Shown here piece after piece: positions 3,353-25,000 of a stretch of 39,664 nt of DNA. A model generated the notes under the pieces. It did no database searches. It was not told the origin of the DNA and was given only the letters and a program-made list of their open reading frames with translations. The stretch lies in contig DFIS01000080.1 in assembly GCA_002372175.1 (NCBI GenBank), positions 1-39,664 of the forward strand. Direction: 5' to 3'. A program made the position numbers and the translations under genes. Numbering within the stretch: position 1 is the stretch's first letter; every line of letters starts with the position of its first letter. The stretch is from Solobacterium sp. UBA3691. Its GTDB lineage: Bacteria; Bacillota_I; Bacilli_A; Erysipelotrichales; Erysipelotrichaceae.

Positions 3353-6220
3353 TCACCTGACGATCTCAAGACCATCTACGGTATTCAGTTTACCCTCGGC
3401 TGCCACTACACATACGGCAGCCTTTTTCATGCCCTCTTCGAGCCAGTCCGCCAGCTGTACAAAGTCCTCCGGCGTCGTATGCAGAAGCTCTTCACGCAGC
3501 TTTTTGCGGTATTCATACGTAATACCGCTGATCTGACGCAGATCTTCAAGACGTATTCTGGACTGCGGAGACTGCAGCGGATCACCGGCTGCTACAGCAC
3601 CGATGATATACGCGTCCAGCGGGGTATCGCCCCTGGCCAGCTCACGTGTGAATTCACCCAGTGTCTTTGTGATATGGATCGTATTCGCCGGATCGGGATC
3701 ACGGAAAGAGTATGCGGTAAGCGTACCGTCAGCTCCCACGGAAAGTCCGGTACCGTAGGCACCGCCCTTGACTCTGACTTCATTCCAGAGATAGCCATAC
3801 GTCAGGATATGACTCAATGCCCTGATCGCTCCGGAGATCCTGCCGCCGACATCCTTCAGGTTGAACGAAGCTGCACTGTAGGCAATACCTGCAGGAATGA
3901 CCATGCCCTCCTGCTTTCTATCTTCGATCGGGAAGTGTACAACACCTCTCTCGAATCTCTGTGTCTGGTACTTATCCGAAAGATCGGTCAGAGCTTTCAG
4001 ATTCTCTTCACCGGTCATGCTCAGGATCATGCGCTCCCTGTTGAACAGGATATCCCTGTACATCTCCAGATTGGCGATGAATTCCTCAGCTCTTTCATCA
4101 TAGTGTTCATACAGATCACTGACCCAGCAGATCGAGGCATAGCCATCGAGGTCTTCCCTGGCACTGCCGCCGGCACTGCACTGTGACGCTGTTCTGATCA
4201 TCGCCGCAAGATGACCGCTGCTGATCATCGCCTGTCTGTTGGCTTCGACCTCCTGTGCCAGAAGAGCCCTGATCATCTCCTTGTCGAAGATCGTCTTCTG
4301 GGTGATCTCCCATACCAGATCCATCGCCGTCTGCAGGTTCTTCTTCAGTACCTTGCCGGTCGCATACAGCAGCGGAATCGCCGCATCACGGTCTTCAGGC
4401 AGGGAACTGACCGTTGTCCCGAAAGCCAGTCCGCCAAGGTCTCTGCGGATGATCTGGCGCAGTTCTGTCAGGGTATGATCTTCGGTCGGAAGACTGCCGA
4501 GCAGATCCGCGAACTCACCGACTTCCGCCAGTGACTTCTTCGTAATACCGTTCATCAGGAAGTACATGCTGAAGTAGACGATACCTGTCTTCTCCTCCGG
4601 ATACAGCATGACCGGTATGCCCCTGTATTCACGCTTCTCCGGTTCATAACGCATCGGTTCTGCCGGTACATCACTGATCTTCAGCTGCGGCAATGTCGCC
4701 AGCTGTTCCGGTGTATCCGGTGTCTCCTGCCATTCATCCAGGACCCTGTTGATCTCCACGAAGGCATTAACATCTTCCCAGCTCTCTTTCGCCTTCTGCA
4801 GACGTGCTGCCTCTTCCGCTTCTCTTTCTTCACCGAGCGTCTTTGACGGTATGGCTGTCAGAATATTGACATCTTCTGCCAGAAGTCCCTCTCTGATCAG
4901 TTCTTCAAAGTATCCCTGATTCAGCTTCTCCCGCAGCTCATCGTAGTAATGTCCGGCATCGAGATACATCGTCGGATCACCATCATACAGCCAGCTTCTG
5001 AGCATCATCTCGGCATAGATGACACCGCTGGGTTCCTTGGGCTCATGGTAGCGGAACTCCATCCCGTTAAGGACTGCCTTTACCTCTTCCCTGTCGATAC
5101 CCTTTGTCACAATATCCGTCAGTACTTCTCTGACCGTCTTTAATACTTCGTCCTTCTTCTCAGGATCGGTATTTCTGACTGACAGTGTAATATACGGCTG
5201 GATCATCTCATCCATCAGGGCGATCTCCACATCCTGCCCAAGACCGCTGTCAATAATAGCCTTCTTTAACTGTGTCTCATTACTTCCGGTCAGTACACCC
5301 GAGATCACATTCCAGGCGATCTGTTTCTCCGGCTCCGTGTAGTCACCGACGATCTTGGCCAGTGTTACTACAGTCTTGGCACTTTCATCCTCATCCGGGG
5401 CGATCTCATAGATTACCGTACGGTCTTCAGCAGGCAGGATCTTCTGCATATCGATATGTACATGCATATCCCTGGCTTCATATTCCTGCAGTACTTCATC
5501 GATCCTTGTCAGTACGGTATCGATATCAAGATCTCCGTCCAGGAAGAAGTACGCATTGGAAGGATGATAGAATCTTCTGTGATCGGCAATAAACTGCTCA
5601 TAGGAAAGATCAGGAATATGCCTGGGATCACCTCCCGATACATACTGATAGCAGGTATCCCTGAACATCATTCTCTGCAGTTCATCGATAATGATCTCAT
5701 CCACGGAAGAGAAAGCACCCTTCATCTCGTTAAAGACAACACCCTTGTATATCGGTTCCTCTTCAGGATCTCTGATCTCATAGTGCCATCCCTCCTGATA
5801 GAAGATATTCGGATTTGTATAGATCGCCGGGTGGAATACCGCATCCAGGTAGACATCCATCAGGTTCAGGAAGTCCTGAGGATTCCTGCTGGATACCGGA
5901 TACATCGTCTTATCGTTGAAGGTCATCGCATTCAGAAACGTCTGCATACTCCCCTTTAACAATTCCACAAACGGTTCTCTCACAGGGTACTTCTTCGAGC
6001 CGTTTAAGACACTGTGTTCAAGAATATGAAAGACACCCGTATCATCCTCGGGTACGGTCTTAAACGCCACCGAGAACGTCTTATTCTCTTCATCACGCTT
6101 TAACCAGGCAAGCTTTGCGCCGGAGTGAGGATGTTCCATCACGATCAGCTCTGCCTGTATGTCATTAACCTTACGGATCTCCTTAACCGTAAAACCATGT
6201 ATGATCTCATTTATCTGCAT
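3353..6220 (-). CDS. M16C insulinase-family zinc metallopeptidase (PreP-like)
   Basis: 955-aa ORF with the inverted zinc motif HxxEH present as H-I-L-E-H (GVFHILEHSVLNGS) near the N-terminus. Length and layout are typical of M16C peptidases. Confidence 0.85.
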   Translation of the reverse strand: MQINEIIHGFTVKEIRKVNDIQAELIVMEHPHSGAKLAWLKRDEENKTFSVAFKTVPEDDTGVFHILEHSVLNGSKKYPVREPFVELLKGSMQTFLNAMTFNDKTMYPVSSRNPQDFLNLMDVYLDAVFHPAIYTNPNIFYQEGWHYEIRDPEEEPIYKGVVFNEMKGAFSSVDEIIIDELQRMMFRDTCYQYVSGGDPRHIPDLSYEQFIADHRRFYHPSNAYFFLDGDLDIDTVLTRIDEVLQEYEARDMHVHIDMQKILPAEDRTVIYEIAPDEDESAKTVVTLAKIVGDYTEPEKQIAWNVISGVLTGSNETQLKKAIIDSGLGQDVEIALMDEMIQPYITLSVRNTDPEKKDEVLKTVREVLTDIVTKGIDREEVKAVLNGMEFRYHEPKEPSGVIYAEMMLRSWLYDGDPTMYLDAGHYYDELREKLNQGYFEELIREGLLAEDVNILTAIPSKTLGEEREAEEAARLQKAKESWEDVNAFVEINRVLDEWQETPDTPEQLATLPQLKISDVPAEPMRYEPEKREYRGIPVMLYPEEKTGIVYFSMYFLMNGITKKSLAEVGEFADLLGSLPTEDHTLTELRQIIRRDLGGLAFGTTVSSLPEDRDAAIPLLYATGKVLKKNLQTAMDLVWEITQKTIFDKEMIRALLAQEVEANRQAMISSGHLAAMIRTASQCSAGGSAREDLDGYASICWVSDLYEHYDERAEEFIANLEMYRDILFNRERMILSMTGEENLKALTDLSDKYQTQRFERGVVHFPIEDRKQEGMVIPAGIAYSAASFNLKDVGGRISGAIRALSHILTYGYLWNEVRVKGGAYGTGLSVGADGTLTAYSFRDPDPANTIHITKTLGEFTRELARGDTPLDAYIIGAVAAGDPLQSPQSRIRLEDLRQISGITYEYRKKLREELLHTTPEDFVQLADWLEEGMKKAAVCVVAAEGKLNTVDGLEIVR

Positions 6221-6290
6221 AGTATTCCTGCCATTTCTAAGCCCATGGGCAATCTATGGATATTGTACCAACGGATAAGAGAAAGAGGCA

Positions 6291-6325
6291 ATAAAACAAA
6301 ATACTCCTGTTGGACAAGAGTATTT
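6291..6325 (-). terminator. Weak candidate terminator between the island and the M16 peptidase gene
   Basis: On the minus strand, AAATACTC (pairs with 6318-6325), an 11-nt loop and GAGTATTT are followed by TGTTTTATT. The stem is AT-rich, so stability is low. Confidence 0.3.
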
Positions 6326-6553
6326 CTTTGCTGTCTCTCCCTGTTACTGCGGGACAGATATCGATTTACAGGACAATCAGCCACGGGGATGGGATGCATC
6401 ACATGACAAGTAACACAAACTTCTTCAATGCGTATTTCAGCAGAGAGTATCCCGCTAGATGTATGAAGAATTATCAAAAGATGATCAACTTCCGTACCGA
6501 TGCTCTAAGACATCATATTTCTTATTTAGAAACTGTAGAATTATAATTGCTGA

Positions 6554-9184
6554 TCAATTGATTTTCACCCACATAGCTGGACGGATCATGTACTCGTATT
6601 TTTGTTTAACAATCGGAGAATATCCATCAACGTATATACCATACAAGCCAATGCCTCCATCATGTACTCCAAAAGCAGCAGTATAAGGTTCTTGACCGGG
6701 CGAGCGCAGCCACCAATTAGAACCATTAGTGACATCGTTGACATAAACACCTTTCCCGAGTGTATATGGTGTTGCTTTTGCCAATCTTTCAGCATCAGAA
6801 TTAAAATACTGCTGAGCTTCCTGTATTGATAACAGGAATATCTTATCCTGTGTATCTTTTCCCGGATCTGTATTGTACTCCGGATTCTTGTCTGCTGTCA
6901 CAGTGCTTGTTTCAATGAGTGATTGTTCTTCACCGGTAAATGCTGATGAAATAAAATAACTATTCAACCATTTTCGAAGTGAACAAGTTTGCCATGTACC
7001 ATTCTCCCTTGATGTATCATATGGCTGACTGTCCAATCCGTATTCACTGATCAAAAGGATCCTGTTATCTTCTTTTGCTAAAACTTTCCATGTAATAGCT
7101 TCTTTGCCATTAGAAGTACTCGCATCCTGTTCATATGAACCAAATGTTACTATTTCTCCGGGCTTGGCAACCATAACTGTAACATACGGATTTTCTTCTC
7201 TAATAGATGCTGCCAGTTCAGCGCTGTCTTTATATCCATTCAAACCCATCAATATCTCATATGCGCCGGCATAATCTCCATTTTCTCGCATAGCAATTGC
7301 GGATTTATACTTATTGCTTGGAATTACCGTTGTTCTTATGATCACAAAAGCAACCACACAAAGAACCAAAACAGCAGTAACTATGCCAATTATGCTCTTT
7401 TTCTTTTTACGGGAGATTTCTTCCTGTTTTCTCTGAATCGCATACTGTCGCTCTATTTCTTTGCGATTCTCTTCTGTTAATCTGTCTATCTCCTTCTGGC
7501 AATACTCTGAATAACCGCCGCTTTCCTGATAACCCTTAAGCGAATCAAATACTGTTTTTGCTTTTTCAAAAGACGTTATATCTGTTGCGGCATTCATCGC
7601 AGTAATAGCTTGTGTATAGTCCAGATTTCTCCTTTGCTCTGCCTGCTCAGCCAATGCCTGCACTTCTTTATCTGCTTGTATAAGGAAAGCAGCATAATTA
7701 CTCTTCACCTTAGAAATACTGTTCTCATCTGTCTTTTTAGCAAGGGTGATACGCTCGTCCAAAATACGGTTTAATTCTGAGAGTTCATTTTCCAGCTTCT
7801 TCTTTGTTTCACCTTTAGCGTATTGTAATGCTCTGGTCAGATTACGTTCTGATTCCAATTCTTTTTGCAGCTTTGATTTTTGAATTCTTCTGCTTTGAAG
7901 ATAAGAGTCAAATCCAAGATCATATTGATATTGTCTCAGAATAGCTTCTCTGTCCAGGTATCCGTCAATACTGTATTTCTGTACTGCTGCATTAATATGA
8001 TCATTATCTTCCTGTCCTGCTTTTACTCGCTGGATGCCGGCATGTTTATACTCTTCTTTGTAATGATTAAACAAAGCTTCAAGATTTGGCTGACGGTTTT
8101 TCAGCAGAAGTTTTCCAAGATATGCTTCTGCAGATTCAGGCTCCTGATTCAGTGCTTCTTCAAAGAAACTATCGGCTTTATCCCATTCCTTGTCCTCAAG
8201 AGCTATCATGCCTCTTTTGACAAATGCCGAGGCACCACCTGAAGAATTGTTCTGAGTAACCGCCTTCTGAACAAACGGGGCTGCAGTCTCCTTTATAACC
8301 ACCTTTTTGATTCCACGAACCACATCATTGATAAATCCAATCTTACTCATGTCCTGTGCCTGGAGATGTGAGAATTCTTCAGGCAGGTCATATGCATCCA
8401 TATCTCTGTAGCAAGGAATCAGCAGCTTGGTACGGTCTTTTTTCATCAATTTCAGGAAACGTGACCATTCGTTCTTTACCCATACTGCATTGAAATACTC
8501 CGGTCTAGTGCCAATCACCAGCATTACTTTTGCTGTATTCAGTGCTGAGAAAATATACGGTTCATATTCTTTTCCCAGTTTATCTTCCAAAGTAATAGCC
8601 GCAAAGAATACTTTAAATCCTTCACGTGTCAGTTGGTAATAGATTTCATTGGCAATCACACTATCCTGTGTTCGTTTCCCAGATTCATCCGTCTCCTTAT
8701 AGCAGATGAAAACATCATATGGATCTTCTTTCTGTGCAAGGGCAAGGATTCCGCGCTGGATCTCATCGATCTCTTTAGCCTGAGCTTCATAGATTCCTCT
8801 TTGGGCAGTATCTGCGTAATATAATGCGTTCTTATAATCTTCATCCGCAGTGACTGATTCATATGACGCACGATGGCATGTCGGAACTCTCTTATACGTC
8901 ACCGGATCTTCAACATACTCAATACCGTACTTACAGAGGATAAGCCCCCAGTATGCTTCAGCTTCTGTTTCACTCCTCTGAAGGATCTTTTCATAGATCT
9001 CTGCTGCTTTATCAAACTCAGAGCGCATACGAAGCGTATTTGCTCTGTTGAAAAGCGTCTGCAAACCTTCATCATGAACAGAAGGAATTGTTTGTCTGGT
9101 ACCGCAGAACTCACATTCACATACCCTGCTTCCCTCTATAACGGTTAAATCACCGCCGCACATCTTACATTTCCATACCACCAT
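6554..9184 (-). CDS. Transmembrane TIR-domain protein: N-terminal Zn-ribbon, TPR-like region, TIR domain, TPR, long coiled coil, one TM helix, C-terminal DUF6273-like domain
   Basis: I moved the start to the ATG at 9184 (AAGGAG RBS 8 nt upstream); the track ORF starts at 9214. Zn-ribbon: CKMCGG...CECEFCG. TIR-like block: YDVFICYKETDESGK...AVWVKNEWSRFL, nt ~8315-8719, with the candidate catalytic Glu codon at 8468-8470. TM helix: KKKK-SIIGIVTAVLVLCVVAFVII-R, nt 7337-7396. The C-terminal domain has the SNWWLRSPG and RPAMWV motifs typical of DUF6273. Confidence 0.8.
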   Translation of the reverse strand: MVVWKCKMCGGDLTVIEGSRVCECEFCGTRQTIPSVHDEGLQTLFNRANTLRMRSEFDKAAEIYEKILQRSETEAEAYWGLILCKYGIEYVEDPVTYKRVPTCHRASYESVTADEDYKNALYYADTAQRGIYEAQAKEIDEIQRGILALAQKEDPYDVFICYKETDESGKRTQDSVIANEIYYQLTREGFKVFFAAITLEDKLGKEYEPYIFSALNTAKVMLVIGTRPEYFNAVWVKNEWSRFLKLMKKDRTKLLIPCYRDMDAYDLPEEFSHLQAQDMSKIGFINDVVRGIKKVVIKETAAPFVQKAVTQNNSSGGASAFVKRGMIALEDKEWDKADSFFEEALNQEPESAEAYLGKLLLKNRQPNLEALFNHYKEEYKHAGIQRVKAGQEDNDHINAAVQKYSIDGYLDREAILRQYQYDLGFDSYLQSRRIQKSKLQKELESERNLTRALQYAKGETKKKLENELSELNRILDERITLAKKTDENSISKVKSNYAAFLIQADKEVQALAEQAEQRRNLDYTQAITAMNAATDITSFEKAKTVFDSLKGYQESGGYSEYCQKEIDRLTEENRKEIERQYAIQRKQEEISRKKKKSIIGIVTAVLVLCVVAFVIIRTTVIPSNKYKSAIAMRENGDYAGAYEILMGLNGYKDSAELAASIREENPYVTVMVAKPGEIVTFGSYEQDASTSNGKEAITWKVLAKEDNRILLISEYGLDSQPYDTSRENGTWQTCSLRKWLNSYFISSAFTGEEQSLIETSTVTADKNPEYNTDPGKDTQDKIFLLSIQEAQQYFNSDAERLAKATPYTLGKGVYVNDVTNGSNWWLRSPGQEPYTAAFGVHDGGIGLYGIYVDGYSPIVKQKYEYMIRPAMWVKIN

Positions 9185-9265
9185 ACTTAAGTCTCCTTCG
9201 TAGTTTTCTGGCAAAAGCTATTCCTATTACATTTTTGGTTTATGATTCACCTATTTGTTATATTT

Positions 9266-10207
9266 CTATCCTTCAAAAATATCGGTCAAATGCTCATCCA
9301 AAAAGTTTTCTAGAGCAGCATTTACCAATCTCAGACACTTCAAATCCAAATCATTTTTAAACGCTATCAGCTGTATCGGTCTATTTGCATGAAACAGTGT
9401 GCACCGAAGGTAATATGACAGTTCACCGACGATAAATCCCTCTACGGTGATATCCTTTTTGACATGCTTTTCTATATAATGACTGATGATCTTATATGTT
9501 TTGGTTTCACTGTCCCGAATATCCTTCAGGAAGGTGTTTTCGCTGACTTCCTGCAGTGCCAAAAGCGGAGATTTTCCTAAGCTTTCTCGTTCTCTCTGTA
9601 TCAGCATTTCATTTCCAAGATGATATCGCCTTAAAATTCTCTCTATATTGGGTTTATCCTTATGTTTTTCAGCATCACGTCTGGATGAATAAAAACCATT
9701 AAATGCCATCCAAAGATTCTGAAACCGTTCTGTTTCATATGCTCTGCTTTTGCTGTACAAATATGCAGATAAAGCCGCGCTCTCACTTCCCTTTTCGGTT
9801 TTTGTTGCCGACATCGCTTTTTGAAGGAATTGAGTTTCCTTAACGTATTCCGGCAGGGGTCTCAACAATTTGGAATTGATCATCGAGTAAGGCATAAAGC
9901 TTGTATCGATAATCTCCTTACATTCATTCCCATCAATCACAGTTAATTCAAAGCATTGATTCTTGATAGGTGCTTCATATAGAAAAAGATGCAGGATCAT
10001 TGCACGCCTGATTCCTTCTCTCATGAGATTGATAAGATACTGATTATTTGTTTTTCTATAATCTTTACCAATCAAAGCACTGATCGTGTACTTATCCTTT
10101 GCTATCCGAACACTAATGTGATGGGTTCGCTGAAAAGAGAATTCAAACTTTTTAGCTCTTCTCAATTCATCATTACAGTTTACCTTTAACAAGTATTTCA
10201 GTTTCAT
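9266..10207 (-). CDS. Hypothetical protein with a C-terminal HEPN-like Rx4H motif (candidate RNase effector)
   Basis: 313-aa AT-rich ORF. The C-terminal helical half contains YYL-R-CTLF-H-ANRP (R268/H273, nt 9389-9406), which fits the HEPN Rx4-6H signature. An upstream helix ERFQNLWMAFNGFY resembles the first HEPN helix. The N-terminal ~130 aa are unrecognised. The functional call is tentative. Confidence 0.4.
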   Translation of the reverse strand: MKLKYLLKVNCNDELRRAKKFEFSFQRTHHISVRIAKDKYTISALIGKDYRKTNNQYLINLMREGIRRAMILHLFLYEAPIKNQCFELTVIDGNECKEIIDTSFMPYSMINSKLLRPLPEYVKETQFLQKAMSATKTEKGSESAALSAYLYSKSRAYETERFQNLWMAFNGFYSSRRDAEKHKDKPNIERILRRYHLGNEMLIQRERESLGKSPLLALQEVSENTFLKDIRDSETKTYKIISHYIEKHVKKDITVEGFIVGELSYYLRCTLFHANRPIQLIAFKNDLDLKCLRLVNAALENFLDEHLTDIFEG

Positions 10208-10277
10208 TCTTTTTCCTATTAACGTGACAGCCCTGAGGAACAGGGTGTTTTCACGTCTCTTATTGATCTGTTTTCAT

Positions 10278-10967
10278 TTACTTGTTTCGTGCACAAAGCA
10301 CATTTCTTTCTTTCAGCTGTGCAGTAATCTTTAAACAGCTTTTCTCTGCTTCTGAACTATTCTTTTCCGTCAGATATTTCTTCAATTTTTCCATCTCGTT
10401 CAGAAGATCATATTCATGCTGGATCGTCGCATCAGACGATACCGGATCACTATATTTAAACTCTTCTGTAAGATCCTGAAGTTTTTTCTTTAATGACCCA
10501 TCCTCACAAATACTAACTAATGCTGAACAGGCTGCCTGTAATGAACGCATGTTCGTAGTATCTTTCTTTATCTTTACTTCCTGTCGTTCTACTTCTTCTC
10601 TTGCTGCATCTGCTGCTACAGTACCTATAACAGCCAATGCTGCGGGCAGTATGTTGATCACGACAGCGATCCATGTCTTTATATATGGCGCAGCAATCAT
10701 CCCAATCAGACTGATCACCAACTGGGCAATCATATACATGACTCCTACACGTGCAATAGGAAAACCATAGAATTTACTTTTTGTTTCTGCTCCGTCAGCA
10801 AACGATATTTTCAGAACATACACCTGGAATACGATGGCAATTACACCAAACAGATATGAAATCCAGAAAACAGCATTTTTATTAAATGGAGCCGCAAACG
10901 CTATAACACTGAAGACGGCAAATATTACAGAAAGGATGATATACCGACGAAGTTCGTTTTTAGACAT
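10278..10967 (-). CDS. Hypothetical 4-TM membrane protein with a ~100-aa cytoplasmic helical tail
   Basis: 229-aa ORF with four clear hydrophobic helices followed by a charged helical C-terminus (…LQDLTEEFKYSDPVSS…). Its start lies 3 nt after the SPFH gene stop, which suggests tight coupling. Confidence 0.6.
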   Translation of the reverse strand: MSKNELRRYIILSVIFAVFSVIAFAAPFNKNAVFWISYLFGVIAIVFQVYVLKISFADGAETKSKFYGFPIARVGVMYMIAQLVISLIGMIAAPYIKTWIAVVINILPAALAVIGTVAADAAREEVERQEVKIKKDTTNMRSLQAACSALVSICEDGSLKKKLQDLTEEFKYSDPVSSDATIQHEYDLLNEMEKLKKYLTEKNSSEAEKSCLKITAQLKERNVLCARNK

Positions 10968-10969
10968 GT

Positions 10970-12820
10970 CTATTCACCTCTTCTCTTTCCGCATATATTG
11001 CAGAAGTTACCGATTATATTCTTGTTACCGCACGAGCAATCCCATGTTGCAGGAACCGACGGTTCCGGTCTCCTGGCTCCGCACATATTACAGAAATTGC
11101 CAATGATATTCTTATTGCCGCATGCACAGTCCCATGTATCCGGTTTAACAGGCTGCGGTCTTCTGGTTCCGCACATATTGCAGAAGTTACCGACGATATT
11201 CTTATTACCGCATGTACAGTCCCATGTATCTGCAACCGGCTGTGTACTTGTTGCAGGATTCGGTACTGCACCTGTCTGTGTCATGTTCATATTTTGGAAC
11301 ATACCGCCAATCTGCGGTGCAACTGCATTCATTGCAGCAAGTCCTACACCAAGACCAAGCATGTCACCCATAACATTGGAGCCCCCGCCTGCAGAGATTG
11401 CCGGTCCCATATTCCCGATTCCTTCAGCATATGCTTTCTGCACTTCAGCCTGCAGTACGTCCCTTTGAGAATATCCCTTGGCAGCCATAACCTCTGCTTC
11501 TGTTAAACCTGCCATTCTCTGTGCCTGCGCTTCCGCCTGGGCAGCAATGACTCTTCTTTCAGCTTCACGTCTGGCGATCTCCGTTTCAGTCGTCTGTCTC
11601 TGCAGTTCAGCTTCACGGCGTGCTGCTTCGATCGTCGCTCTGCTTTGTTCCTGCGCGGTTCTGTACTGAGTCTCTGCCTGTGCCTGTACAGTCTTTATCG
11701 TTGCATCTGCCTGCACAACTCTTGCCTGAAGGGTAATTGTATGCAGTTCTCTTATCCGTTTGAAATTCGGATCATTTTCCGGAAGCACCACACTTGTTAC
11801 ATATAACTGAGGGATGGTTAAACCATATTCTTCAAATCCCGGAAGAATCTTCTGTCTGAGATTTTCAGATATAAGATCCAGCTTCTCATCAATCTCCAAA
11901 AGATCAATATTCTCATTTTTAATTACTGAAGACAGATTGGTTTTTACAGCATTTGCGATTAATGGCCGGAAGGATGCCTGAAGTGATTTTGTCATACCTT
12001 CCCCACCGTCCCATGAAACTCCTTTTGTTGTTCCTACAAGCTTTACAAGCAGTTTCCTGGCATTAGATACCTGTAGATTCATTTCACCGGATGCTCCGAT
12101 CTCCAACGGTGTACCGGTCAATGGATCAATGAAGCGTACTTTTTCCGGTGTCCCCCACTTAATAGCCATCTGAACAGTCTTATTAATAAAATACACTTCA
12201 GAGTGGAAAGTCCTGTCTGTATCTGTAGGCAGCTGATAAATAGAATCCAAAATCGGAAGTTTCTGAGTTTCAAGTGTGTATCTGCCCGGTCCAAACAGAT
12301 CTAACGCCTGGCCATCTCTGAAAAAAACCGCTTCCTGACTTTCGTGCACGATCAACTGAGATCCCATATTGAAATCTTCTATAGGATGCTTCCAGATAAA
12401 AGTATTATTATCTCCTTCATATTTGATGATGCTTGCCAGACCGTCTTTTCTCATCTTTTCAGCCATCAGGCGTTCCGGAACATTATTCACAAAGTCACAA
12501 ACTGGACATGTATAGGAAGATGCCGCCTTGCTGGTGATCAGTTTCACACCACATTGGGCGCAGGAAAATTCTGCCATTTTATCTTGGCCTTCCATCGTAT
12601 TGATTGGTTCTCCGCAGACAGGACACTTCGCCTTTGCTCCTTTTGACTGATCAAAAACAACATCATTGCTGCAGTGAGGGCATTTTCTGCTTATAAGTTT
12701 ATCCATACGAACATTAATCGTGTAACCGCAGGAACAATCAATTTTCTTTCTTGCAAAGAACCCACTGCTTGCTTCTACATATTTGCCGCAGTTCGGACAC
12801 TCCATTACGAATTTAGACAT
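10970..12820 (-). CDS. SPFH/Band-7 family protein (YdjI / COG4260-like) with three N-terminal Zn-ribbons and three C-terminal RanBP2-like Zn fingers
   Basis: 616-aa ORF. N-terminal CxxC pairs: CPNCG...CSCG, CPHCS...CPVCG, CAQCG...CPVCD. The central region (IIKYEGDNNTFIWKHP...SQLIVHESQEAVFFRDGQ...) is typical of YdjI-type SPFH proteins and is followed by an A/Q/E-rich coiled coil. The C-terminus has 3x TWDC.CGNKNI.GNFCN.CG.RR. A GAGGGAG RBS precedes the start. Confidence 0.8.
   Translation of the reverse strand: MSKFVMECPNCGKYVEASSGFFARKKIDCSCGYTINVRMDKLISRKCPHCSNDVVFDQSKGAKAKCPVCGEPINTMEGQDKMAEFSCAQCGVKLITSKAASSYTCPVCDFVNNVPERLMAEKMRKDGLASIIKYEGDNNTFIWKHPIEDFNMGSQLIVHESQEAVFFRDGQALDLFGPGRYTLETQKLPILDSIYQLPTDTDRTFHSEVYFINKTVQMAIKWGTPEKVRFIDPLTGTPLEIGASGEMNLQVSNARKLLVKLVGTTKGVSWDGGEGMTKSLQASFRPLIANAVKTNLSSVIKNENIDLLEIDEKLDLISENLRQKILPGFEEYGLTIPQLYVTSVVLPENDPNFKRIRELHTITLQARVVQADATIKTVQAQAETQYRTAQEQSRATIEAARREAELQRQTTETEIARREAERRVIAAQAEAQAQRMAGLTEAEVMAAKGYSQRDVLQAEVQKAYAEGIGNMGPAISAGGGSNVMGDMLGLGVGLAAMNAVAPQIGGMFQNMNMTQTGAVPNPATSTQPVADTWDCTCGNKNIVGNFCNMCGTRRPQPVKPDTWDCACGNKNIIGNFCNMCGARRPEPSVPATWDCSCGNKNIIGNFCNICGKRRGE
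10973..11227 (-). repeat. Three tandem ~90-bp coding repeats (one Zn finger each)
   Basis: Repeat units lie at about 11138-11227, 11048-11137 and 10973-11047 (the last is truncated by the stop). The periodicity also shows in the antisense ORF 10998..11468 (LQKLP.IFLLPH.QSHV x3). Confidence 0.85.
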
Positions 12821-13014
12821 TATAATTCTCCCTCTTCAGTGCTTTTACTTATCTCCTGAATCACTTCATTAAAAACAGTCAGACTGTTCTTCTTGTTAAT
12901 TGGTATATCAAGAATTTTTGCGTCATGATCCATATTCATTTCTGCTGATAGCCTACAAATATATACCGATATTATTTTGCCGATTTTTTGCGATCTACCA
13001 CGATATATGAACAT
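12820..13014 (-). CDS. Possible small ORF (39-64 aa) translationally coupled to the SPFH gene
   Basis: Its stop TAA overlaps the SPFH ATG (TAATG). I recognised no family and the start is uncertain (an internal MNMDHDAK... start is possible). It could be spurious. Confidence 0.25.
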   Translation of the reverse strand: MFIYRGRSQKIGKIISVYICRLSAEMNMDHDAKILDIPINKKNSLTVFNEVIQEISKSTEEGEL

Positions 13015-13152
13015 TGATCTTTTGACTTTGTTATTACAGCAAGTTCGCTCTGTCCTGCCTTACTTCCGTAAATCTCAAATACATTGCTATGTGATTATGG
13101 GATCGACGCTTTGCAACATTTCCCGGGCTTCGCTGGATTTCTGATTTTAGGA

Positions 13153-15738
13153 TTAGTCGATTTTCACCCATAAAGCGGGGCGGACCGTGTTACTGTCATC
13201 ATCCACGGAGTCGCCGATCACATCGACAAGAACAGAGATCTTAGCAGCAAACCCGGAATCGCTGCCGGGCGACCGCAGCCACCAGGAACACATTCCTTTG
13301 TCATTTGTATAAGCTCCATTCTTTTTTGCGTATGGCGTTGCTTTAGCACTTCTATTTTCATCGGATTTGAAATATTTGTTTACTTCAGGCACAGATAAGA
13401 GAAATATCTTATCCTGTGTATTCTTACCAGGGTCTGCAGGATACTCAGGATTCTTATCCGCAGTTACTTTTGTCGTAAGAATCCGTGCTTTTTCCTGTCC
13501 ATTAAACACAGTATTATAGAACTCTTTATTCAACCATTTTCTTATCGAACATTTTTCCCATGTTATACTTTCGTATTCTTCGTTGTATGGCTTCGCATCA
13601 ATTCCATCTTCTGTAATCAGCAGTGCTCTGTCTTTTTTAACTTCAAGTATTCGCCATTTAATTGGTTTCTTCTGAGAATCATATTGATAAGTGCCAAACC
13701 CTTGACTTATTATTTGAGCTTTATTAATTAACGGGTTTATTGCATTTATAATCATTGCCTTTGCAGAGACAGTATTATTTTGATGTATGATTACTGCTTT
13801 CTTTTCCGGCTTTGGCTTTTGTACGGGTTTATCTGCTGGCTTGGTCACTGGTTTCGTTTCAATGAGTGTTTTTTTCAAAGCCGCAATATTATCCTCCAAC
13901 TCTTTTCTCTTTTTGCCGGAGAACAAACCTTTCAAATTCTTTTTTTCAGATTCTAATTTCTTTATTTTCTCTTCCAATTCACCTTTTTTCTTCTCTGCGG
14001 TTATACATGATTCTTCATAATCAATTTTGGATTGTTCCCATTTCTTTACAGCTAGATTATTATCGTTTTCCCATTGACTAATATCTCTCTGGTAAGAATC
14101 TTCAGCGTCTTTTTCCGCTTTCTTTCTTGCTGTTTCTTCCTCTATTTTTATTTTGGAAATCTGATCAGCATTTTTTTCTAAACGATCAGAAATATCTCTT
14201 TTAAACAATTCTGACTGTTCAGCCAATAATTTTTCTGCATTTTTTCTCTTTTCTAATTCTTTTGACATTTCAGATTTAAGAAGATCCCTGAGTTTGTCGA
14301 TCACTTTGTTTATTTCTTTTTCAACATTTCCATCTTTGTATCTGCATGCGCGTTTGTAATCGCGGTTGTTAAGAAGTTTCCCAAGACCTTCAACTGATAA
14401 ATTTCTGAATGCCTCCCTATAGCACACAGGATCCTCTAGTGTAAATGTTATTTTTTCAGGATGTAAGCCAATCAGCAATTTATCCAGTTCCTGATCAGAG
14501 AATTCATCGAGGAAGTGCCGAGAATCTGCTTCCCTTGCATATGCATGCGCCTCAAATGGAAGCGTCTGAACCCATAAATGTTCTTGCGCGTGCTTTTTAA
14601 TCTGGTCAAATAATTTTTTTGCCAATTCTGCTGAGCAATTCGAATTATACACGCACAGTACTTTCCCCCAGTAAGCAGCGCCACATTCTGCATCATTGTT
14701 AAGAACCTGCTCATAAAACTCATTAGCTCTTGTAAAATCACCATCTTCAATTGCCATATTGCCACGTTTCAATAGTGACTGTGTCTGCGCGTTCAAAACT
14801 GACAGCCCGCTGTCAGTATTTTTTTCTTCTTTTTCCTTATTATCTTTTCTCAGAATTTTATCGATCCCTCTCAAAAGATCCTGCATTGCACCTACTTTTC
14901 CCATATCTTGTGCCTGCAGTCTTGCAAATTCCTTCGGCATATCATATGCATCCAGATTTTTATATACCGGGATCATTGTTTTCTTTTCTCCTGAAGCTAT
15001 AAGATGAAGATATCTACTCCATTCGTTCTTTACCCATACCGCATCAAAATATTCAAATTTTGTTCCAACGGCCAGCATCAGTTTGGCGGAATGAAGTGCC
15101 GCAAAGATATATGGTTCATATTCCGTGCCGAGTTTATCTTCTAACGTAATTCTGGAGAAGAATACCCGATATCCCTTTTCAGTTAAAGCATTATAAATAT
15201 CCTGTGCCAGAACACTGTCCAGTGTCCTTTCTCCGTTTTCATCGGTTTCTTTGTAGCAAATAAAGATATCATACGGCTGTTCATTGGAAGATACTTCTAT
15301 TATGCCTTTTCTCAGATCTTCAATTTTCTTAGCCTCGTCACGATATACACGCTTTGCAACTGCATCAGCATATTCCATGACCATCTCATAATTATTGTCA
15401 TCAAAAATACTTTCAAACGAGGATCTGTGGCAGGTAGGCACTTTCTTTCCGGTTAGCGGATCATCAACATACTCTATTCCATACTTGCAAAGAACCAGTC
15501 CCCAGTATGCTTCTGCTTCTTCCTGAAATTCAGAAATGATAGCTTCATATACACCGGCAGCTTTGTCGAATTCATTATTAAAACGAAGTCTGTTTGCCCG
15601 TGTAAACAAATTCATCTTTTTTTCATTATCCGCATTTGGAATTGTCTGCAAAGTTCCGCAGAATTCACATTCACATACTGTACTGCCTTCTATCGGTGTA
15701 AGATCTCCACCGCACATTTTACATTTCAGAGCCACCAT
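13153..15738 (-). CDS. Soluble TIR-domain protein, paralogue of 6554..9184: Zn-ribbon, TPR-like region, TIR, TPR, long K/E-rich coiled coil, P/K linker, DUF6273-like C-terminal domain; no TM helix
   Basis: 861-aa ORF with a GGAGGG RBS. The first ~290 aa are collinear and gap-free with the other TIR protein (about 60% identity by eye). TIR block: YDIFICYKETDENGE...AVWVKNEWSRYL, nt ~14869-15273, Glu codon at 15022-15024. The C-terminus has the CSWWLRSPG and RPALWV motifs. Confidence 0.8.
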   Translation of the reverse strand: MVALKCKMCGGDLTPIEGSTVCECEFCGTLQTIPNADNEKKMNLFTRANRLRFNNEFDKAAGVYEAIISEFQEEAEAYWGLVLCKYGIEYVDDPLTGKKVPTCHRSSFESIFDDNNYEMVMEYADAVAKRVYRDEAKKIEDLRKGIIEVSSNEQPYDIFICYKETDENGERTLDSVLAQDIYNALTEKGYRVFFSRITLEDKLGTEYEPYIFAALHSAKLMLAVGTKFEYFDAVWVKNEWSRYLHLIASGEKKTMIPVYKNLDAYDMPKEFARLQAQDMGKVGAMQDLLRGIDKILRKDNKEKEEKNTDSGLSVLNAQTQSLLKRGNMAIEDGDFTRANEFYEQVLNNDAECGAAYWGKVLCVYNSNCSAELAKKLFDQIKKHAQEHLWVQTLPFEAHAYAREADSRHFLDEFSDQELDKLLIGLHPEKITFTLEDPVCYREAFRNLSVEGLGKLLNNRDYKRACRYKDGNVEKEINKVIDKLRDLLKSEMSKELEKRKNAEKLLAEQSELFKRDISDRLEKNADQISKIKIEEETARKKAEKDAEDSYQRDISQWENDNNLAVKKWEQSKIDYEESCITAEKKKGELEEKIKKLESEKKNLKGLFSGKKRKELEDNIAALKKTLIETKPVTKPADKPVQKPKPEKKAVIIHQNNTVSAKAMIINAINPLINKAQIISQGFGTYQYDSQKKPIKWRILEVKKDRALLITEDGIDAKPYNEEYESITWEKCSIRKWLNKEFYNTVFNGQEKARILTTKVTADKNPEYPADPGKNTQDKIFLLSVPEVNKYFKSDENRSAKATPYAKKNGAYTNDKGMCSWWLRSPGSDSGFAAKISVLVDVIGDSVDDDSNTVRPALWVKID

Positions 15739-15905
15739 GATGATCCCTCCATTTCCCCTTATAATTGATTAAGATTATCTATTTATCGCAATTCGCTCAA
15801 TCTGGACTAAAACGTGTACTTTTTTGCTTGGTAATATGTCTAAATCAAATTTTAACATATACCGCTCTTTATGCGCATAACAATAAGGTACTTAGAAGCT
15901 AATAC

Positions 15906-16597
<692 letters not shown>

Positions 16598-16627
16598 TCA
16601 TCCATGTTTTCTGCGCATGCATATATG

Positions 16628-21030: not shown

Positions 21031-22095
21031 CTAATTATTCCTGGCATACAGTGCCTGCATTCTCTCATAGAATGCCGGATTCTCATCACCGTACTGTTTC
21101 TGGCACTCATCCAGAGCAGCCTTGTACAGACTCGTATTGATATGATTGTCGATATTGATACGGATACCCTGTGCATCCAGGAGACCCAGACGCTTCATGT
21201 AAGCCCAGGCTCTCTTTACCGAACTCCTCATCGGATCGGTATTGACCTCAAACCTCGGATTATCCATGAATGCCCTGACATGTTCCTCATCTTCACCAAG
21301 CTGCTCAGCCATCAGCTTTACAGCCTCCTCATGATGTGTCTCATAGTAAGCCATAGCCCGGATCCACGCCTTCATCAGGCCCTTCACCGCCTCCGGGTTT
21401 TCTTCTACCCACGAAGTCAGTGCCTCCGAACGGCAGCACGAATAGTCAGGCAGGACATCACTCGCATACGTCAGGATCTTGAGATTGGGATTCGTATTGA
21501 TCTCATAATTTAATCCCGTACCGACAAGTCCGAAATCCGCTTCACCCGACTCCACCGCCGCAATACGCTCTTCCTGATTCTCTGTCTCGAGCCAGGTGAC
21601 CTCCTTCAGCGGATCATAGCGCATCTCCAGCAGAGGACCGGTGATCGCGTAGAGGTTCGGCTCCCAGGCAACCGTCTTACCGATGATATCTTCAATGCCG
21701 TGCCATTCCGCATCAGCCCGCCCGAATACAGGCATACAGCCGGTAAGCAGATAGCCGCCGAAGATCGTCAGATCCATGCCCTCAGAGATATGCTGAAGAG
21801 GCAGATTCGTACCGGAATTGGTCGCAATATCGATCGTACCGTTCCTGATACCTTCAAATACTTCGATATCATTCTGTACTTTGACATATTCAATGATGAT
21901 GCCCTCATCCTTCAGGTACCCCTGTGCCTCTGCGATCGCTGTCAGCACATGCCCGTTGGGATGATCCGCAAGCCGTACCGTGATTATCTCCCGCGGTGTT
22001 TCTTCGGGGATATCCTCCTGCGGTTTTTCCGTACAGCCGGAGACTGTCAGCACACTGCTCAGGAGCACTGCCGCAATCATACTGCGTTTATTCAT
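21031..22095 (-). CDS. ABC-type substrate-binding lipoprotein (NMT1/THI5-, SsuA/TauA-like)
   Basis: 354-aa ORF with a lipoprotein signal peptide ending LTVSGC. The fold call comes from general similarity to nitrate/sulfonate/bicarbonate-type SBPs. No permease or ATPase gene is adjacent. Its start overlaps the upstream MscS-like gene by 8 nt. Confidence 0.65.
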   Translation of the reverse strand: MNKRSMIAAVLLSSVLTVSGCTEKPQEDIPEETPREIITVRLADHPNGHVLTAIAEAQGYLKDEGIIIEYVKVQNDIEVFEGIRNGTIDIATNSGTNLPLQHISEGMDLTIFGGYLLTGCMPVFGRADAEWHGIEDIIGKTVAWEPNLYAITGPLLEMRYDPLKEVTWLETENQEERIAAVESGEADFGLVGTGLNYEINTNPNLKILTYASDVLPDYSCCRSEALTSWVEENPEAVKGLMKAWIRAMAYYETHHEEAVKLMAEQLGEDEEHVRAFMDNPRFEVNTDPMRSSVKRAWAYMKRLGLLDAQGIRINIDNHINTSLYKAALDECQKQYGDENPAFYERMQALYARNN

Positions 22096-25000
22096 GTTTC
22101 ACAGCCTCCTCATTTGCCCTGGCTTCCTCTTCGGCCTTGAAATCCTCGATCGTCTTACGTCCGCTCATATCCAGCTGGGATATCGTTACATTCGGGAACG
22201 GTACATTGATACCGTTTCTGTAGAAGATCTTCAGCACCTCCGCATTCAGGTATCTGTTCATGCCCTTGACATCCTTCTCAAAGCACTTGCAGATGACCAG
22301 GACATCGATACCGCTGGCCCCGAGATTGGAAACACCCAGATATGTAGGACCATCCAGGATCAGATCATTCTTCTCTCTCAATGCCGGCAGTTCACGCTTC
22401 ATGACAGCTTCCACATAGTCGATATCCTGTCCGTATTCGATACTGATCGTTGCCGAAGCGATCGAAGCTTCCTTCGTCATGTTCAGTACACCGGAGATAT
22501 GACTGTTGTTGTAGATCTTGATATTTCCGCCGGGCGCCTGGATCTTGGTCGTACGCAGACCGATATCCATGACCGTACCTCTGGTACCGTCGATCGTCAC
22601 GATATCACCGACCCGGAATTCTCCCTCAAAGACGATGAAGATACCGGCAATGATATCCGTGATCAGACTCTGGGCGCCAAGACCGATGACAAGTGACAGA
22701 ATACCGGCACTGGCCAGAACGTTGCTCGAATCCATACCCACAAGATACAGACAGTAGAAGAAGGCACCGATGGCACCGCCGTACTTCAGCACCGACAGTA
22801 ACAGATGACCCAGGGTCTCACCTCTCGTGCCAAACAGCGACACAACAAGCTGTATCGGGAATCTGCACAGGGATACACCGACGATCGCCACGGTCATGAT
22901 CAGCACACAGGAAGTCAGCGCAAAGATATTCCATCCTCTGTCCCAGGAACTGTAGACGATATACTTGATGATCGACTTTCTGTGGATCAGACTATCCGCC
23001 CCAAGTACGGAGATCAGCACATAGATCATCAGCAGGATACAGATGATCTTGATCATTAACATCAGTTTCTGTTCGGGACTGCGCTCACTCCATGATAAAC
23101 GGCGATTGCTCCAGCGTGCTGCCGCCGTCACCGTCGAAGCCGTCCGTCCGGAAGGAAGAATAATACTGTAGACAGCCGCATTGTTTCCGCTCTCCATCTC
23201 CTTATTGAGGGACTCGTAGAGCTTCTCTTCTTCTCTGTCTGTCAGCGTGATCGTTAACGACAGGATCAGGATCAGCACAAAGCAGATCACCGACGTGATC
23301 AGGGCGATCGGCAGACGTGCCGCAAACATACTGCTGCGCGGTATTGCCGTACAGATATAGTATCCGTCAAGGTAACGGAAATACTGGAAGTATGTCTCCG
23401 TACCGATCCGGTTAAAGCCAAAGTAATTCTCACTCAGGAAGGCCTTGTCAGGAATGCCGAGATCTGCGGCCTTCTTGCCGACATTCACTTCCAGCGGTGA
23501 ATACAGACATATATGATCATCGGTCGTATCAAACATGGCAATGGAACCGCCGTCCAGCATATTCGAAGACAGAATACTGGACACATCCGTAGCCTCCAGC
23601 AGTGAATCTGTCAGTGAATCATCCAATTCGATCTGGATCATCGACCGGTGTGCCGTAATACTGCCTTCTTCCGTCTCTGTCAGCCCGGATCCGTTGATCA
23701 TATCCTCATATTCAAACCGGGAAACATACAGTGTCTCCCCGTTTTCATCCTTTGCGGTATAGTAGTGGAATACCGTACCGATATACCGGGATGTCTTACC
23801 GAGATCATTGACCATCCTCTCCTGGATATAGCTGTCTTTCCTGCCGTCGATCACATCCAGGAACGGATAGGACTGATCTCCTTCATTATGACTGATCCGG
23901 AAGAACCAGTTCGGTGTACTTGTCGCAATGGTCCTGCCGTTTTCATCATAGATATAGATCTCATTGATGCCGTTAACCTCACACAGCTTCTTCAAAGCCT
24001 GTGAATTGGCCACAGACTTCAGTCTGTTGCCCTCATCATCTGTCAGATATACTTTATTGTTGTCTTCATCATAGATACTGTGATATCTGTCTGACTCTTC
24101 ATTCAGGATCGCAGGGTCTTCCTCCGCGCCAAGTGAGACAAGGGCTGCCGTCGTCAGGAAACGCCTGTCGTGGTACTGGTTGATCAGCTGCCGGCTCTCC
24201 TGGCTCTCCTCATATCTGCCGATCACTTCCTGCAGGGCAACTTCCGACTTCTCGATGCCTTCCGTCACCTCCAGCAGTGTCTGTGTATAGAACGACAGGC
24301 CGAACATGGCCATGATGCCCGTAAGCAGCAGCGGGAAGATCTTCTTGAATATGGACTTATCCAGGTAGATCGGATCTTTCGAATTACCGCGCAGGACGAT
24401 CCTGTCGGTCTGTACCTCCCGGCGGACAAAGTCATTGCGCACAATGACCGCATATGCCAGACACAGGATCATGATGACATTAAAGGCCAGGACTGACCAG
24501 AAAGCAACATAATTGACATCCTCACGGATCATGTCATATTCTGCTGCCGCCAAGATCACCGTATGATCCGGAAGCTCCTCGGTAACCACATAATACTCAT
24601 GACCGCCGATTCTCTGCGTACCTCTGTATCCTGCTGTCAGCGCCTCTTCCGTAAGTCCGCTGTTGGCTGTCTTCTGTCCTGTTAACAGCTGATCTCCGCT
24701 GTTGTAATACCTGAAGATCCTGTCGGAGGGATCCACAGCGAAAAGGAAACCGTCGTTGATCACGGCTGCACGCTTCAGCACCGACTCAACATTCGTCAGC
24801 TCTTCCGTCTGATGATCCAGAATATCTGCTTCGGCACCGATCGCCAGGACATACTCCTGATCCTCATACCGGTATGGCTTTGCGTAGAAATAAAAGATAC
24901 CGAACCGGTTTTTCACCCGCACATATGCCGGCGCATCAGTACCGCCTGCGGCACATGCCAGCAGTTCGTTGACATTCTCCTGGGTCATATATGCAGGAAC

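Follow-up and report, generated by a model that had tools for sequence, protein, structure and literature searches.

TIR proteins are an immunity currency common to bacteria, plants, and animals. To our knowledge, the known bacterial TIR proteins are cytoplasmic and each is linked to a specific effector. Such bacterial TIR immune proteins (Thoeris ThsB, SpbK, AbTir, TIR-SAVED, and SPARTA TIR-APAZ) are among the closest described counterparts of two genes, here called A and B, that we analysed in a 39,664-nucleotide (nt) stretch of DNA from Solobacterium sp. UBA3691 (the window: contig DFIS01000080.1, assembly GCA_002372175.1). Both genes lie in an island (positions 6000-16600) low in guanine plus cytosine (GC) and encode proteins with a TIR domain and a C-terminal DUF6273 domain. 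Like the TIR immune proteins, A and B have a glutamate at the catalytic position and a sensor-plus-TIR logic, and NADase activity driven by oligomerisation would be expected of them. They come, however, without a ThsA-like effector, a SAVED domain, or an Argonaute partner, and their family adds a unique N-terminal Zn-ribbon/hairpin module, an optional transmembrane (TM) helix with a predicted extracellular sensor, conserved SPFH and four-TM (4-TM) partner proteins, and multi-paralogue arrays. Thoeris was tried and rejected as an assignment (the PADLOC ThsB model scored 16.1 bits with E = 0.0011, and NCBIfam ThcB4, whose cut-off is 220, scored 25.9 bits), and no ThsA-type effector (SIR2 or Macro/TM with SLOG) was found among the island genes or the neighbours of 80 family loci. 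No other known defence system fitted either, as PADLOC scores were at noise level for the TIR proteins and nothing matched the SPFH protein, the 4-TM protein, or a 313-aa protein encoded with them.

Toll-like receptors and plant TIR-NLRs resemble B in coupling a ligand-binding domain to TIR across a single TM helix, and some family members have leucine-rich repeats (LRRs). In the family, however, the order is reversed (TIR N-terminal, sensor C-terminal), there is no NB-ARC/STAND module, and half of the members would be cytoplasmic; the likeness is an analogy of architecture and not shared ancestry of the whole proteins. In multicellular bacteria, 'antigen sensor' proteins diversified by diversity-generating retroelements (DGRs) have C-type-lectin (CLec) domains fused to TIR, CHAT, or STAND effectors (PMC10907252, Dore et al.). 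A and B share a C-terminal CLec-like domain with these sensors and with phage tentaclins (PMC10743442); the variable region (VR) of DUF6273 is likewise C-terminal, and one relative has a VR paired with a template region (TR). They differ from the CLec sensors in that no TR or reverse transcriptase (RT) was found within the window or its scanned open reading frames (ORFs), in that most family members have non-CLec sensors, in that the partners are SPFH and 4-TM proteins instead of STAND, MoxR, or vWA, and in that the hosts are gut Clostridia. For the SPFH side, the comparison is with Bacillus subtilis YdjI, which we take to be a member of Pfam Band_7_1. YdjI needs a Zn-ribbon and membrane partners to recruit cytoplasmic PspA to the membrane, and in the PspA-YdjGHI system, as in the cluster described here, a Band 7/SPFH protein is encoded with a Zn-ribbon element and a multi-pass membrane protein (PMC8581546). 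Our cluster differs in that no PspA gene is present among the island genes (Pfam), in that the Zn-ribbons are fused to the SPFH and TIR proteins, and in its clients, which would be the TIR proteins. TIR, CLec, and SPFH are individually known; what is not known from earlier work, as far as we could see, is how they are combined here, on what scale, and with sensors placed on both sides of the membrane.

Genes A and B are shown by our locus comparisons to be part of a conserved same-strand cluster, made up of a small ORF resembling a ribbon-helix-helix (RHH) protein, an SPFH gene, a 4-TM gene, a slot of variable cargo, and TIR paralogues in one to five copies. We lean towards reading this cluster as a modular array of TIR (NADase) sensors on an SPFH membrane scaffold, a function that we infer.

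The two proteins align from end to end (39% identity, BLASTP). An initial annotation had described them as paralogues with conserved ends, an unrelated middle, and a TM helix in B only, and its account of the ends and of the helix is confirmed, with similarity well above chance. Residues 1-296 align without gaps at 59.8% identity (z = 67 against shuffles), close to the ~290 residues at ~60% first estimated, and identity within this region is 75% in the Zn-ribbon, 51% in residues 41-155, and 62% in TIR. The C-terminal ~190 residues (A681-861 and B684-876), also proposed as homologous, are 45.7% identical (z = 32), and Pfam DUF6273 matches both proteins (E = 2.4e-32 for A and 6.2e-30 for B). Pfam TIR_2 (PF13676; gathering cut-off 28 bits) covers residues 158-280 in each, at 44.4 bits in A and 45.4 bits in B. 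Identity is 34% in the TPR-like unit (about residues 316-365) and 18% in the middle (A366-680 and B365-683; z = 3.2). By Kyte-Doolittle hydropathy, called by threshold in 19-residue windows, B has one TM helix at residues 597-619 (peak 3.32 at 598; 13 windows above 1.6) and A has none over the whole protein (highest window 1.08); near the position of B's helix, A has the P/K-rich stretch TKPVTKPADKPVQKPKPEKK (residues 628-647), the linker that had been pointed out. The ORF of gene B extends to a TTG at 9214, and from the ATG at 9184 its protein begins MVVWKCKMCGG. A protein identical to A is present in public data (P0001).

The part of that description that fails is the 'unrelated' coiled-coil middle. 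Profiles of 55 A-type and 47 B-type middles align at 97% probability (E = 1.2e-10, 197 columns, 13% identity), a score that coiled-coil composition can inflate, although ~100 of the aligned columns fall in the globular part; because the subfamily profiles align in this way, the middles of A and B are strongly diverged and not unrelated. The motif R(D/N)xxRAxxYA is common to both profiles. AlphaFold2 (AF2) models, with mean confidence (pLDDT) of 91 for A and 85.4 for B, place the same elements in the same order after TIR in both proteins, namely a TPR pair, a small alpha/beta domain (A 366-469, B 365-457), and very long helices, and the TM helix of B (H600-634) corresponds to the soluble helix 608-627 plus the P/K linker of A. 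A sequence search of A against the PDB gave no match.

Both TIR domains have the flavodoxin-like TIR fold. The glutamate of plant 'WCxxEL', equivalent to SARM1 E642, is the catalytic residue in NADase TIRs, and TIR domains generally function as oligomers. With a TIR-only profile, the WVKNEW motif of the family aligns with L6 'WCLMEL' and TLR 'WCQYEL' at weak E-values (L6, 0.12), and because of this alignment we place E239 at the putative catalytic position. This glutamate is invariant in 121 and 114 sequences and also in 142 newly retrieved representatives, and W235, N238, E239, and W240 vary little or not at all across the family. The closest TIR sequence match in the PDB is TLR15/TLR2.

The family is large. 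A search with A returned at least 8,000 candidates; among the 120 matches listed, all but one (P0068, which has no recorded DUF6273 match) carry TIR_2 and DUF6273, and in 31 a TM helix is located around residues 470-650. The first 155 residues of A retrieved at least 2,440 clusters at 50% identity (E <= 1e-30), with the match beginning at residue 1-8 in 150/150 of the best clusters. WVKNEW follows this N-module in all 142 newly retrieved members, which divide into 68 with a TM helix (TM+) and 74 without (TM-), and 12 of which have DUF6273. Species-representative genomes hold at least 584 family loci, all from gut or rumen Clostridia (Lachnospiraceae, Oscillospiraceae, Ruminococcaceae, Acutalibacteraceae, and Christensenellales), and the best relatives come from Lachnospiraceae metagenome-assembled genomes (MAGs).

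What lies at the C-terminus varies. The 76 complete members without DUF6273 include 31 with an RCC1 propeller, 4 with BspA LRRs, 2 with LRR_8, and 1 each with WG and MORN, the rest having no Pfam match; the sensor domains (DUF6273, RCC1 propeller, LRR) are thereby shown to be interchangeable within the family. TM+ and TM- forms occur in similar numbers both among DUF6273 proteins (16 vs. 20) and among those with other C-terminal domains (34 vs. 42), which fits the earlier suggestion of two sensing compartments. DUF6273 is invariably C-terminal of the TM helix, and lysine plus arginine residues average 5.7 on the N side of the helix and 1.8 on the C side across the family, with B likewise positive on its N side. 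The positive-inside rule thus supports a predicted N-in/C-out topology for TM+ members and, with it, the proposal that DUF6273 would be extracellular in B and intracellular in A. The cytoplasmic lectin-like domain of A had been called odd. This topology would not be anomalous, because cytoplasmic CLec-TIR fusions, like those with CHAT or STAND, have already been described as putative intracellular antigen sensors (PMC10907252). On a neighbour-joining (NJ) tree of 233 N-modules, TM state requires at least 38 changes (68 at random) and DUF6273 presence at least 45 (74 at random); both characters are phylogenetically structured yet very labile, the counts being rough.

Conserved partners accompany the TIR genes. 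We searched the ORFs of 80 fetched loci, called from the first ATG, for relatives of every island gene; 35 of these loci span at least 18 kb. SPFH relatives occur in 46/80 loci and 4-TM relatives in 44/80, and one or the other is present in 28 of the 35 long loci. The SPFH gene is directly followed by the 4-TM gene in 39 loci, the 4-TM gene by a TIR gene (within 200 nt) in 27, and a TIR gene stands upstream of SPFH in 13, as in the window, where A is upstream and B downstream of the SPFH pair. Two to five TIR paralogues, on the same strand except in one locus (L041), occur in 33 loci; copy number ranges from one to five overall, and 45/80 loci, some of them incomplete, have a single copy. Contexts sampled from SPFH homologues gave the same picture in 3/3 cases (small ORF, SPFH, 4-TM, optional cargo, and one or two TIR_2 genes). 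The SPFH family has at least 8000 matches, and with identities of 64-86% among the 120 homologues listed, the SPFH protein is much better conserved than the TIR proteins. The SPFH and 4-TM genes that intervene between A and B, overlooked in the initial annotation, are conserved partners of the TIR family.

The remaining positions of the cluster are less constant. An ORF of 39-66 aa is found upstream of SPFH in every locus examined (L085 9846-9983, L086 4177-4371, L087 1099-1299, L089 9791-9985); in other loci the 45-66 aa versions carry an RHH-like motif (SARIPKDM...GRTRNEI), with a weak RHH_1 match in L089, and the ORF of the window is very divergent, being ~23% identical to its counterparts. 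The 313-aa protein has one homologue (63% identity) in 5.8e9 proteins, is confined to the window locus among the loci fetched, and matched no family (Pfam, PADLOC, NCBIfam, PHROGs) and no PDB entry. Elsewhere the cargo slot holds an HEPN pEK499_p136 protein (L006) or a 183-aa gene, a 552-aa gene, and DUF4365 (L087). A relationship of the 313-aa protein to the HEPN protein in the same slot was considered and rejected, as there is no similarity; by eye, the 313-aa protein has an Rx4H motif, LRCTLFH. Neighbours of the 80 loci are heterogeneous, with serine recombinases commonest (5/136) and ~10/136 matching PADLOC models, and no third conserved partner was found among them. The 4-TM protein matched nothing in Pfam, PADLOC, NCBIfam, or PHROGs, and the SPFH protein sequence nothing in the PDB. 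We found no description of the SPFH/4-TM/TIR cluster or of the N-terminal module in the literature, our coverage of which is incomplete (many subscription papers lie outside it). As side observations on the SPFH protein, its N-terminus bears several CxxC ribbons, and three tandem 90-nt repeats at its C-terminus (10979-11243, minus strand; 68-81% identical) encode TWDCxCGNKNIxGNFCNxCGxRRP zinc fingers that look RanBP2-like by eye.

Table 1 Features of the window (positions in nt of the 39,664-nt stretch; residue numbers refer to protein A)
Feature	Position	Strand	Remarks
Gene A	13153-15738	-	861 aa, ATG start; TM-less TIR-DUF6273 protein; Pfam TIR_2 and DUF6273
Zn-ribbon CxxC...CxxC, A residues 1-37	15628-15738	-	C6, C9, C24, C27 (near-)invariant in 121 sequences; 75% identical to B
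Helical and beta-hairpin module (EAYWGL..CKYGIEYVDDP..PTCHR), A residues 38-155	15274-15627	-	Family signature; C84, C103, H104, R105 invariant
TIR domain with invariant Glu239 (WVKNEW), A residues 156-296	14851-15273	-	
Second TPR-like unit, A residues 316-365	14644-14793	-	34% identical to B; TPR Pfam and PDB profile matches
Small alpha/beta domain, A residues 366-469	14332-14643	-	AF2 pLDDT >90, strands 389-393 and 430-434; aligns with B-type profile including RxxxRAxxYA
Long helices (coiled-coil-like hairpin), A residues 470-627	13858-14331	-	AF2 helices 470-522, 524-600, 608-627
P/K-rich linker, A residues 628-658	13765-13857	-	TKPVTKPADKPVQKPKPEKK; coil in AF2 model; near TM position of B
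DUF6273 (C-type-lectin-like), predicted cytoplasmic, A residues 680-861	13156-13701	-	VR-equivalent loop residues 826-852 (nt 13183-13263)
Gene B	6554-9184	-	876 aa, likely ATG start; TM-anchored TIR-DUF6273 protein; TIR 8297-8719, TM 7328-7396, DUF6273 6557-7135
Small ORF	12820-12939	-	39 aa (64 aa from 13014); just upstream of and overlapping SPFH start; called in L001, L002
SPFH protein	10970-12820	-	616 aa; N-terminal Zn-ribbons, Band_7_1 domain (PF13421, E = 2.5e-37), three C-terminal 30-aa Zn-finger repeats
4-TM membrane protein	10278-10967	-	229 aa, cytoplasmic helical tail; conserved partner of SPFH
Near-orphan cargo gene	9266-10207	-	313 aa; variable slot between 4-TM gene and TIR gene B
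Small serine recombinase	15986-16567	-	193 aa; upstream island edge; Pfam Resolvase E = 5.4e-18; weak NCBIfam XisF, Mpi invertase matches
15-nt inverted repeats 15810-15824 / 15915-15929 flanking 90 nt	15810-15929	.	Gap between recombinase gene and A; candidate invertible segment
Terminator-like hairpin	6298-6326	-	Downstream of B; 13-pair stem and T tail; probable transcription-unit end

Our comparisons of separate modules indicate how A and B are related. For the N-module of A, the nearest proteins are TM-less, are encoded on other contigs (P0002, P0008, P0004, and others), and share 82-92% identity with it, while B ranks 209/233; for the N-module of B, they are TM+ proteins of other species (73-80%), followed by a small number of TM-less proteins (66-73%), with A in 63rd place. 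The middle of A matches TM-less proteins exclusively (P0002 at 50%, others at 30-37%) and that of B matches TM+ proteins exclusively (27-34%), with no A-B match from either side, and the DUF6273 ends mostly track the same subfamilies as the other two modules. The N, middle, and C modules of A are closest to TM-less proteins and those of B mostly to TM+ proteins. The modules are largely congruent in pointing to an ancient paralogy, and A and B are thus long-separated members of one large Clostridia-specific family. Hence the proposed 'paralogous pair' stands insofar as the two are paralogues, and falls insofar as a local duplication was implied. Against its closest relative (P0002), A is 92% identical in the N-module, 50% in the middle, and 62% in the C-module. 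The mosaic of conserved and diverged regions is, as these comparisons show, a rate gradient along one homologous protein, in which the N-module evolves much more slowly than the DUF6273 scaffold, and the scaffold more slowly than the middle and the binding loop; it does not stem from recent duplication or recombination.

The DUF6273 domain itself is CLec-like and a recurrent DGR target with the VR at the C-terminus, and gut phages use it as a DGR-diversified receptor-binding module (PMC10743442, PMC11792537, bioRxiv 10.1101/2024.10.15.618418). A and B both carry this CLec-like variable domain of the kind that DGRs target. Identity between the two is 51% over the scaffold but 18% in the VR-equivalent loop, which runs from WWLRSPG to RPA(L/M)W. 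A TM+ TIR-DUF6273 gene in a Lachnospiraceae MAG (L006) has a VR at 12422-12540 that matches a TR lying some 560 nt downstream of it, at 13129-13247; nearly every mismatch is at a TR adenine, the TR codons are rich in AAT/AAC, and a weak Avd-like ORF (12700-12981) lies between VR and TR. This textbook VR/TR pair shows the L006 DUF6273, by its mismatch pattern, to be a DGR variable region. No RT (RVT Pfam) was found within 10 kb downstream in L006, and no RT-like motif in the 82 fetched loci (regular expression only). For A and B, BLAST with the last 200 nt of each gene found no TR in the 39.7-kb window, and a TR elsewhere in the genome is possible; no RT or Avd was found among 17 window ORFs (7 in the island and 10 flanking, up to 25465), the ORFs at ~25.5-39.6 kb lying outside the scan.

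Taken together, these features suggest how the array might work. Each TIR paralogue would be a receptor with a constant cytoplasmic N-terminal unit (Zn-ribbon, signature module, and TIR), followed by TPR, alpha/beta, and long helical regions, an optional TM helix, and a swappable binding domain. The C-terminal domain would bind a ligand outside the cell in TM+ members such as B or in the cytoplasm in TM-less members such as A, and binding could shift the oligomeric state via the helical region, switching on the TIR NADase. The SPFH/4-TM pair may organise or regulate the TIR receptors at the membrane, by analogy with B. subtilis YdjI. The role would likely be phage or envelope surveillance.

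Two other histories of the locus have to be considered. A recent tandem or segmental duplication within the island, with a fast-diverging middle and repeats that now serve as deletion substrates, would fit two same-strand genes in a 6554-nt register (start to start, in keeping with the direct repeats ~6.5 kb apart that had been noted), their collinear similarity blocks, and a low-GC island with an adjacent recombinase. This history is barely credible, however, and already contradicted: the N-module of A is far closer to proteins on other contigs than to B, which ranks near the end of its list; at the nucleotide level, blocks of 109-172 nt match at 73-74% identity and the longest exact shared run is 21 nt; the SPFH and 4-TM genes that separate A from B form the core that other species conserve in this cluster; and the identical arrangement is intact in two other assemblies, on independent metagenome contigs (L001, L002). 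The low nucleotide identity and the intact copies likewise speak against the idea that the repeats mediate deletion of the genes between them, and A and B are poor recombination substrates. Similarly, the DUF6273 ends could mark A and B as prophage-derived receptor-binding or DGR target proteins, and the locus as phage cargo. DUF6273 does have PHROG matches to a Hoc-like decoration protein and BFVD matches to phage DUF6273 and receptor-binding proteins, the L006 relative has its VR/TR pair, and one neighbouring ORF among the family loci is a prophage tail protein. Yet just 2 family loci turned up in 2.9 million viral contigs, whereas cellular genomes hold at least 584, the window has no TR copy and the 82 loci no RT-like motif, the window flanks are housekeeping genes, and DUF6273 is present in just 12/142 representatives, so that we give next to no credence to phage cargo, a reading already largely contradicted.

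As to function, the most serious alternative, which we nonetheless consider unlikely, is a role in cell-envelope organisation or adhesion, in which the C-terminal domains attach to wall polymers of the cell itself or to glycans of the host, SPFH forms membrane microdomains, and TIR serves as a protein-protein scaffold or as an NAD-linked housekeeping regulator. A secreted IgA protease of gut bacteria carries DUF6273 (9qa6; PMC12402451), RCC1, BspA-LRR, and WG repeats are typical of Firmicute surface proteins, YdjI, the SPFH protein of B. subtilis, takes part in membrane maintenance together with PspA (PMC8581546), and few classical defence genes lie near family loci. On the other side, about half of the family has no TM helix or signal peptide, and the binding domains of those members would for that reason be cytoplasmic; the catalytic-position glutamate is invariant across the family; the island genes include no PspA; and multi-copy arrays, swapped sensors, DGR targeting, mobile-element neighbours, and a low-GC island are hallmarks of conflict systems. 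An obligate hetero-oligomer of A and B, held together by their helical regions and coupling extracellular and intracellular DUF6273 in one complex, as suggested in the initial annotation, seems improbable. A and B seem to be transcribed as a single unit, with a terminator after B and no convincing one inside the unit on the minus strand (the sole internal match of the terminator scan on that strand falls inside gene B), both proteins have long helices, TIR domains are generally oligomeric, and TM+ and TM- forms occur together in 20/28 multi-copy loci. This mixing, however, compares with 16.9 loci expected at random (P = 0.15), the two forms have no up- or downstream bias relative to SPFH, single-copy loci are common, and the helical regions are the least conserved part, each resembling its own subfamily alone; an obligatory partnership is thus not borne out. 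The sensor array on an SPFH scaffold remains our preferred reading, and several points weigh against it. SPFH and 4-TM are missing within 10 kb in 7/35 long loci, making the association strong without being absolute; the heterogeneous neighbours and the ~10/136 matching defence models, counted without a matched random-gene baseline, weaken the case; and the cluster has no conserved downstream effector (SIR2, SLOG, Macro, nuclease) and, in PADLOC, no matching model for SPFH/4-TM and TIR scores at noise level. The alignment of the putative catalytic glutamate to L6 is weak, TM calls depend on a threshold, an NJ tree of so conserved a module is noisy, and the RCC1 by TM cross-table and motif counts come from regular expressions (the 31/76 RCC1 count is from Pfam). 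Our arguments on NADase activity, ligand binding, and phage defence, all of which we infer from sequence, should be read with these points in mind.

A wider reading is held more tentatively, and we regard it as possible rather than probable. The family may represent a widespread, hitherto undescribed Clostridial surveillance system, in which an SPFH/4-TM scaffold carries arrays of TIR receptors with an invariant Zn-ribbon/TIR head and with sensors shuffled among paralogues and deployed outside or inside the membrane, making it a functional equivalent, in bacteria, of the Toll-like and cytosolic TIR receptors; DGR hypermutation would act on some members, and invertible promoters would switch some of the clusters. 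One TIR head would then be joined to many binding domains on either side of the membrane in the at least 2,440 clusters from dominant gut and rumen Clostridia. Should the function hold, the family would offer a tractable bacterial model of transmembrane TIR signalling, its receptor repertoires would diversify through domain swapping and in at least one case DGR hypermutation, and immunity or surveillance would be added to the roles of SPFH/flotillin-like proteins. Genome annotators can treat thousands of proteins now labelled "TIR domain-containing" or "DUF6273 domain-containing" as one modular family with defined partners.

The island that holds the cluster has a GC fraction of mostly 0.37-0.42 (0.47 over 11-12 kb), compared with about 0.50-0.53 in the flanks, and is bordered by a PreP-like M16 peptidase on one side and by 2-hydroxyacid dehydrogenase and citrate-lyase genes on the other. 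Resolvases stand at a position equivalent to that of the small serine recombinase in L045, L075, and L087. In addition to the inverted repeats between the recombinase gene and A, a third copy of the 15-nt repeat is present at 15965-15978. At the equivalent place in L087 (828-1042), a recombinase is accompanied by unrelated 22-nt inverted repeats that flank 167 nt with a TTGACA. This arrangement suggests that the flanked segment may be an invertible promoter giving phase-variable expression. No inverted orientation of the segment was observed, as L001 and L002 are oriented like the window, and neither an inverted nor a forward junction was present in JGI metagenomes.

Beyond the island, the MatE transporter gene (509-1876) is surrounded by a 172-nt direct repeat (333-504 and 1716-1887; 73% identity, 1383 nt apart), and a 40-nt repeat (99-138 and 579-618) may reflect partial duplication of the end of that gene. 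On the minus strand at 22088-25465, an unusually long protein (1125 aa) has as its sole Pfam match an MscS-type channel beta-domain near the C-terminus, and an NMT1/THI5-like binding protein is encoded just downstream of it.

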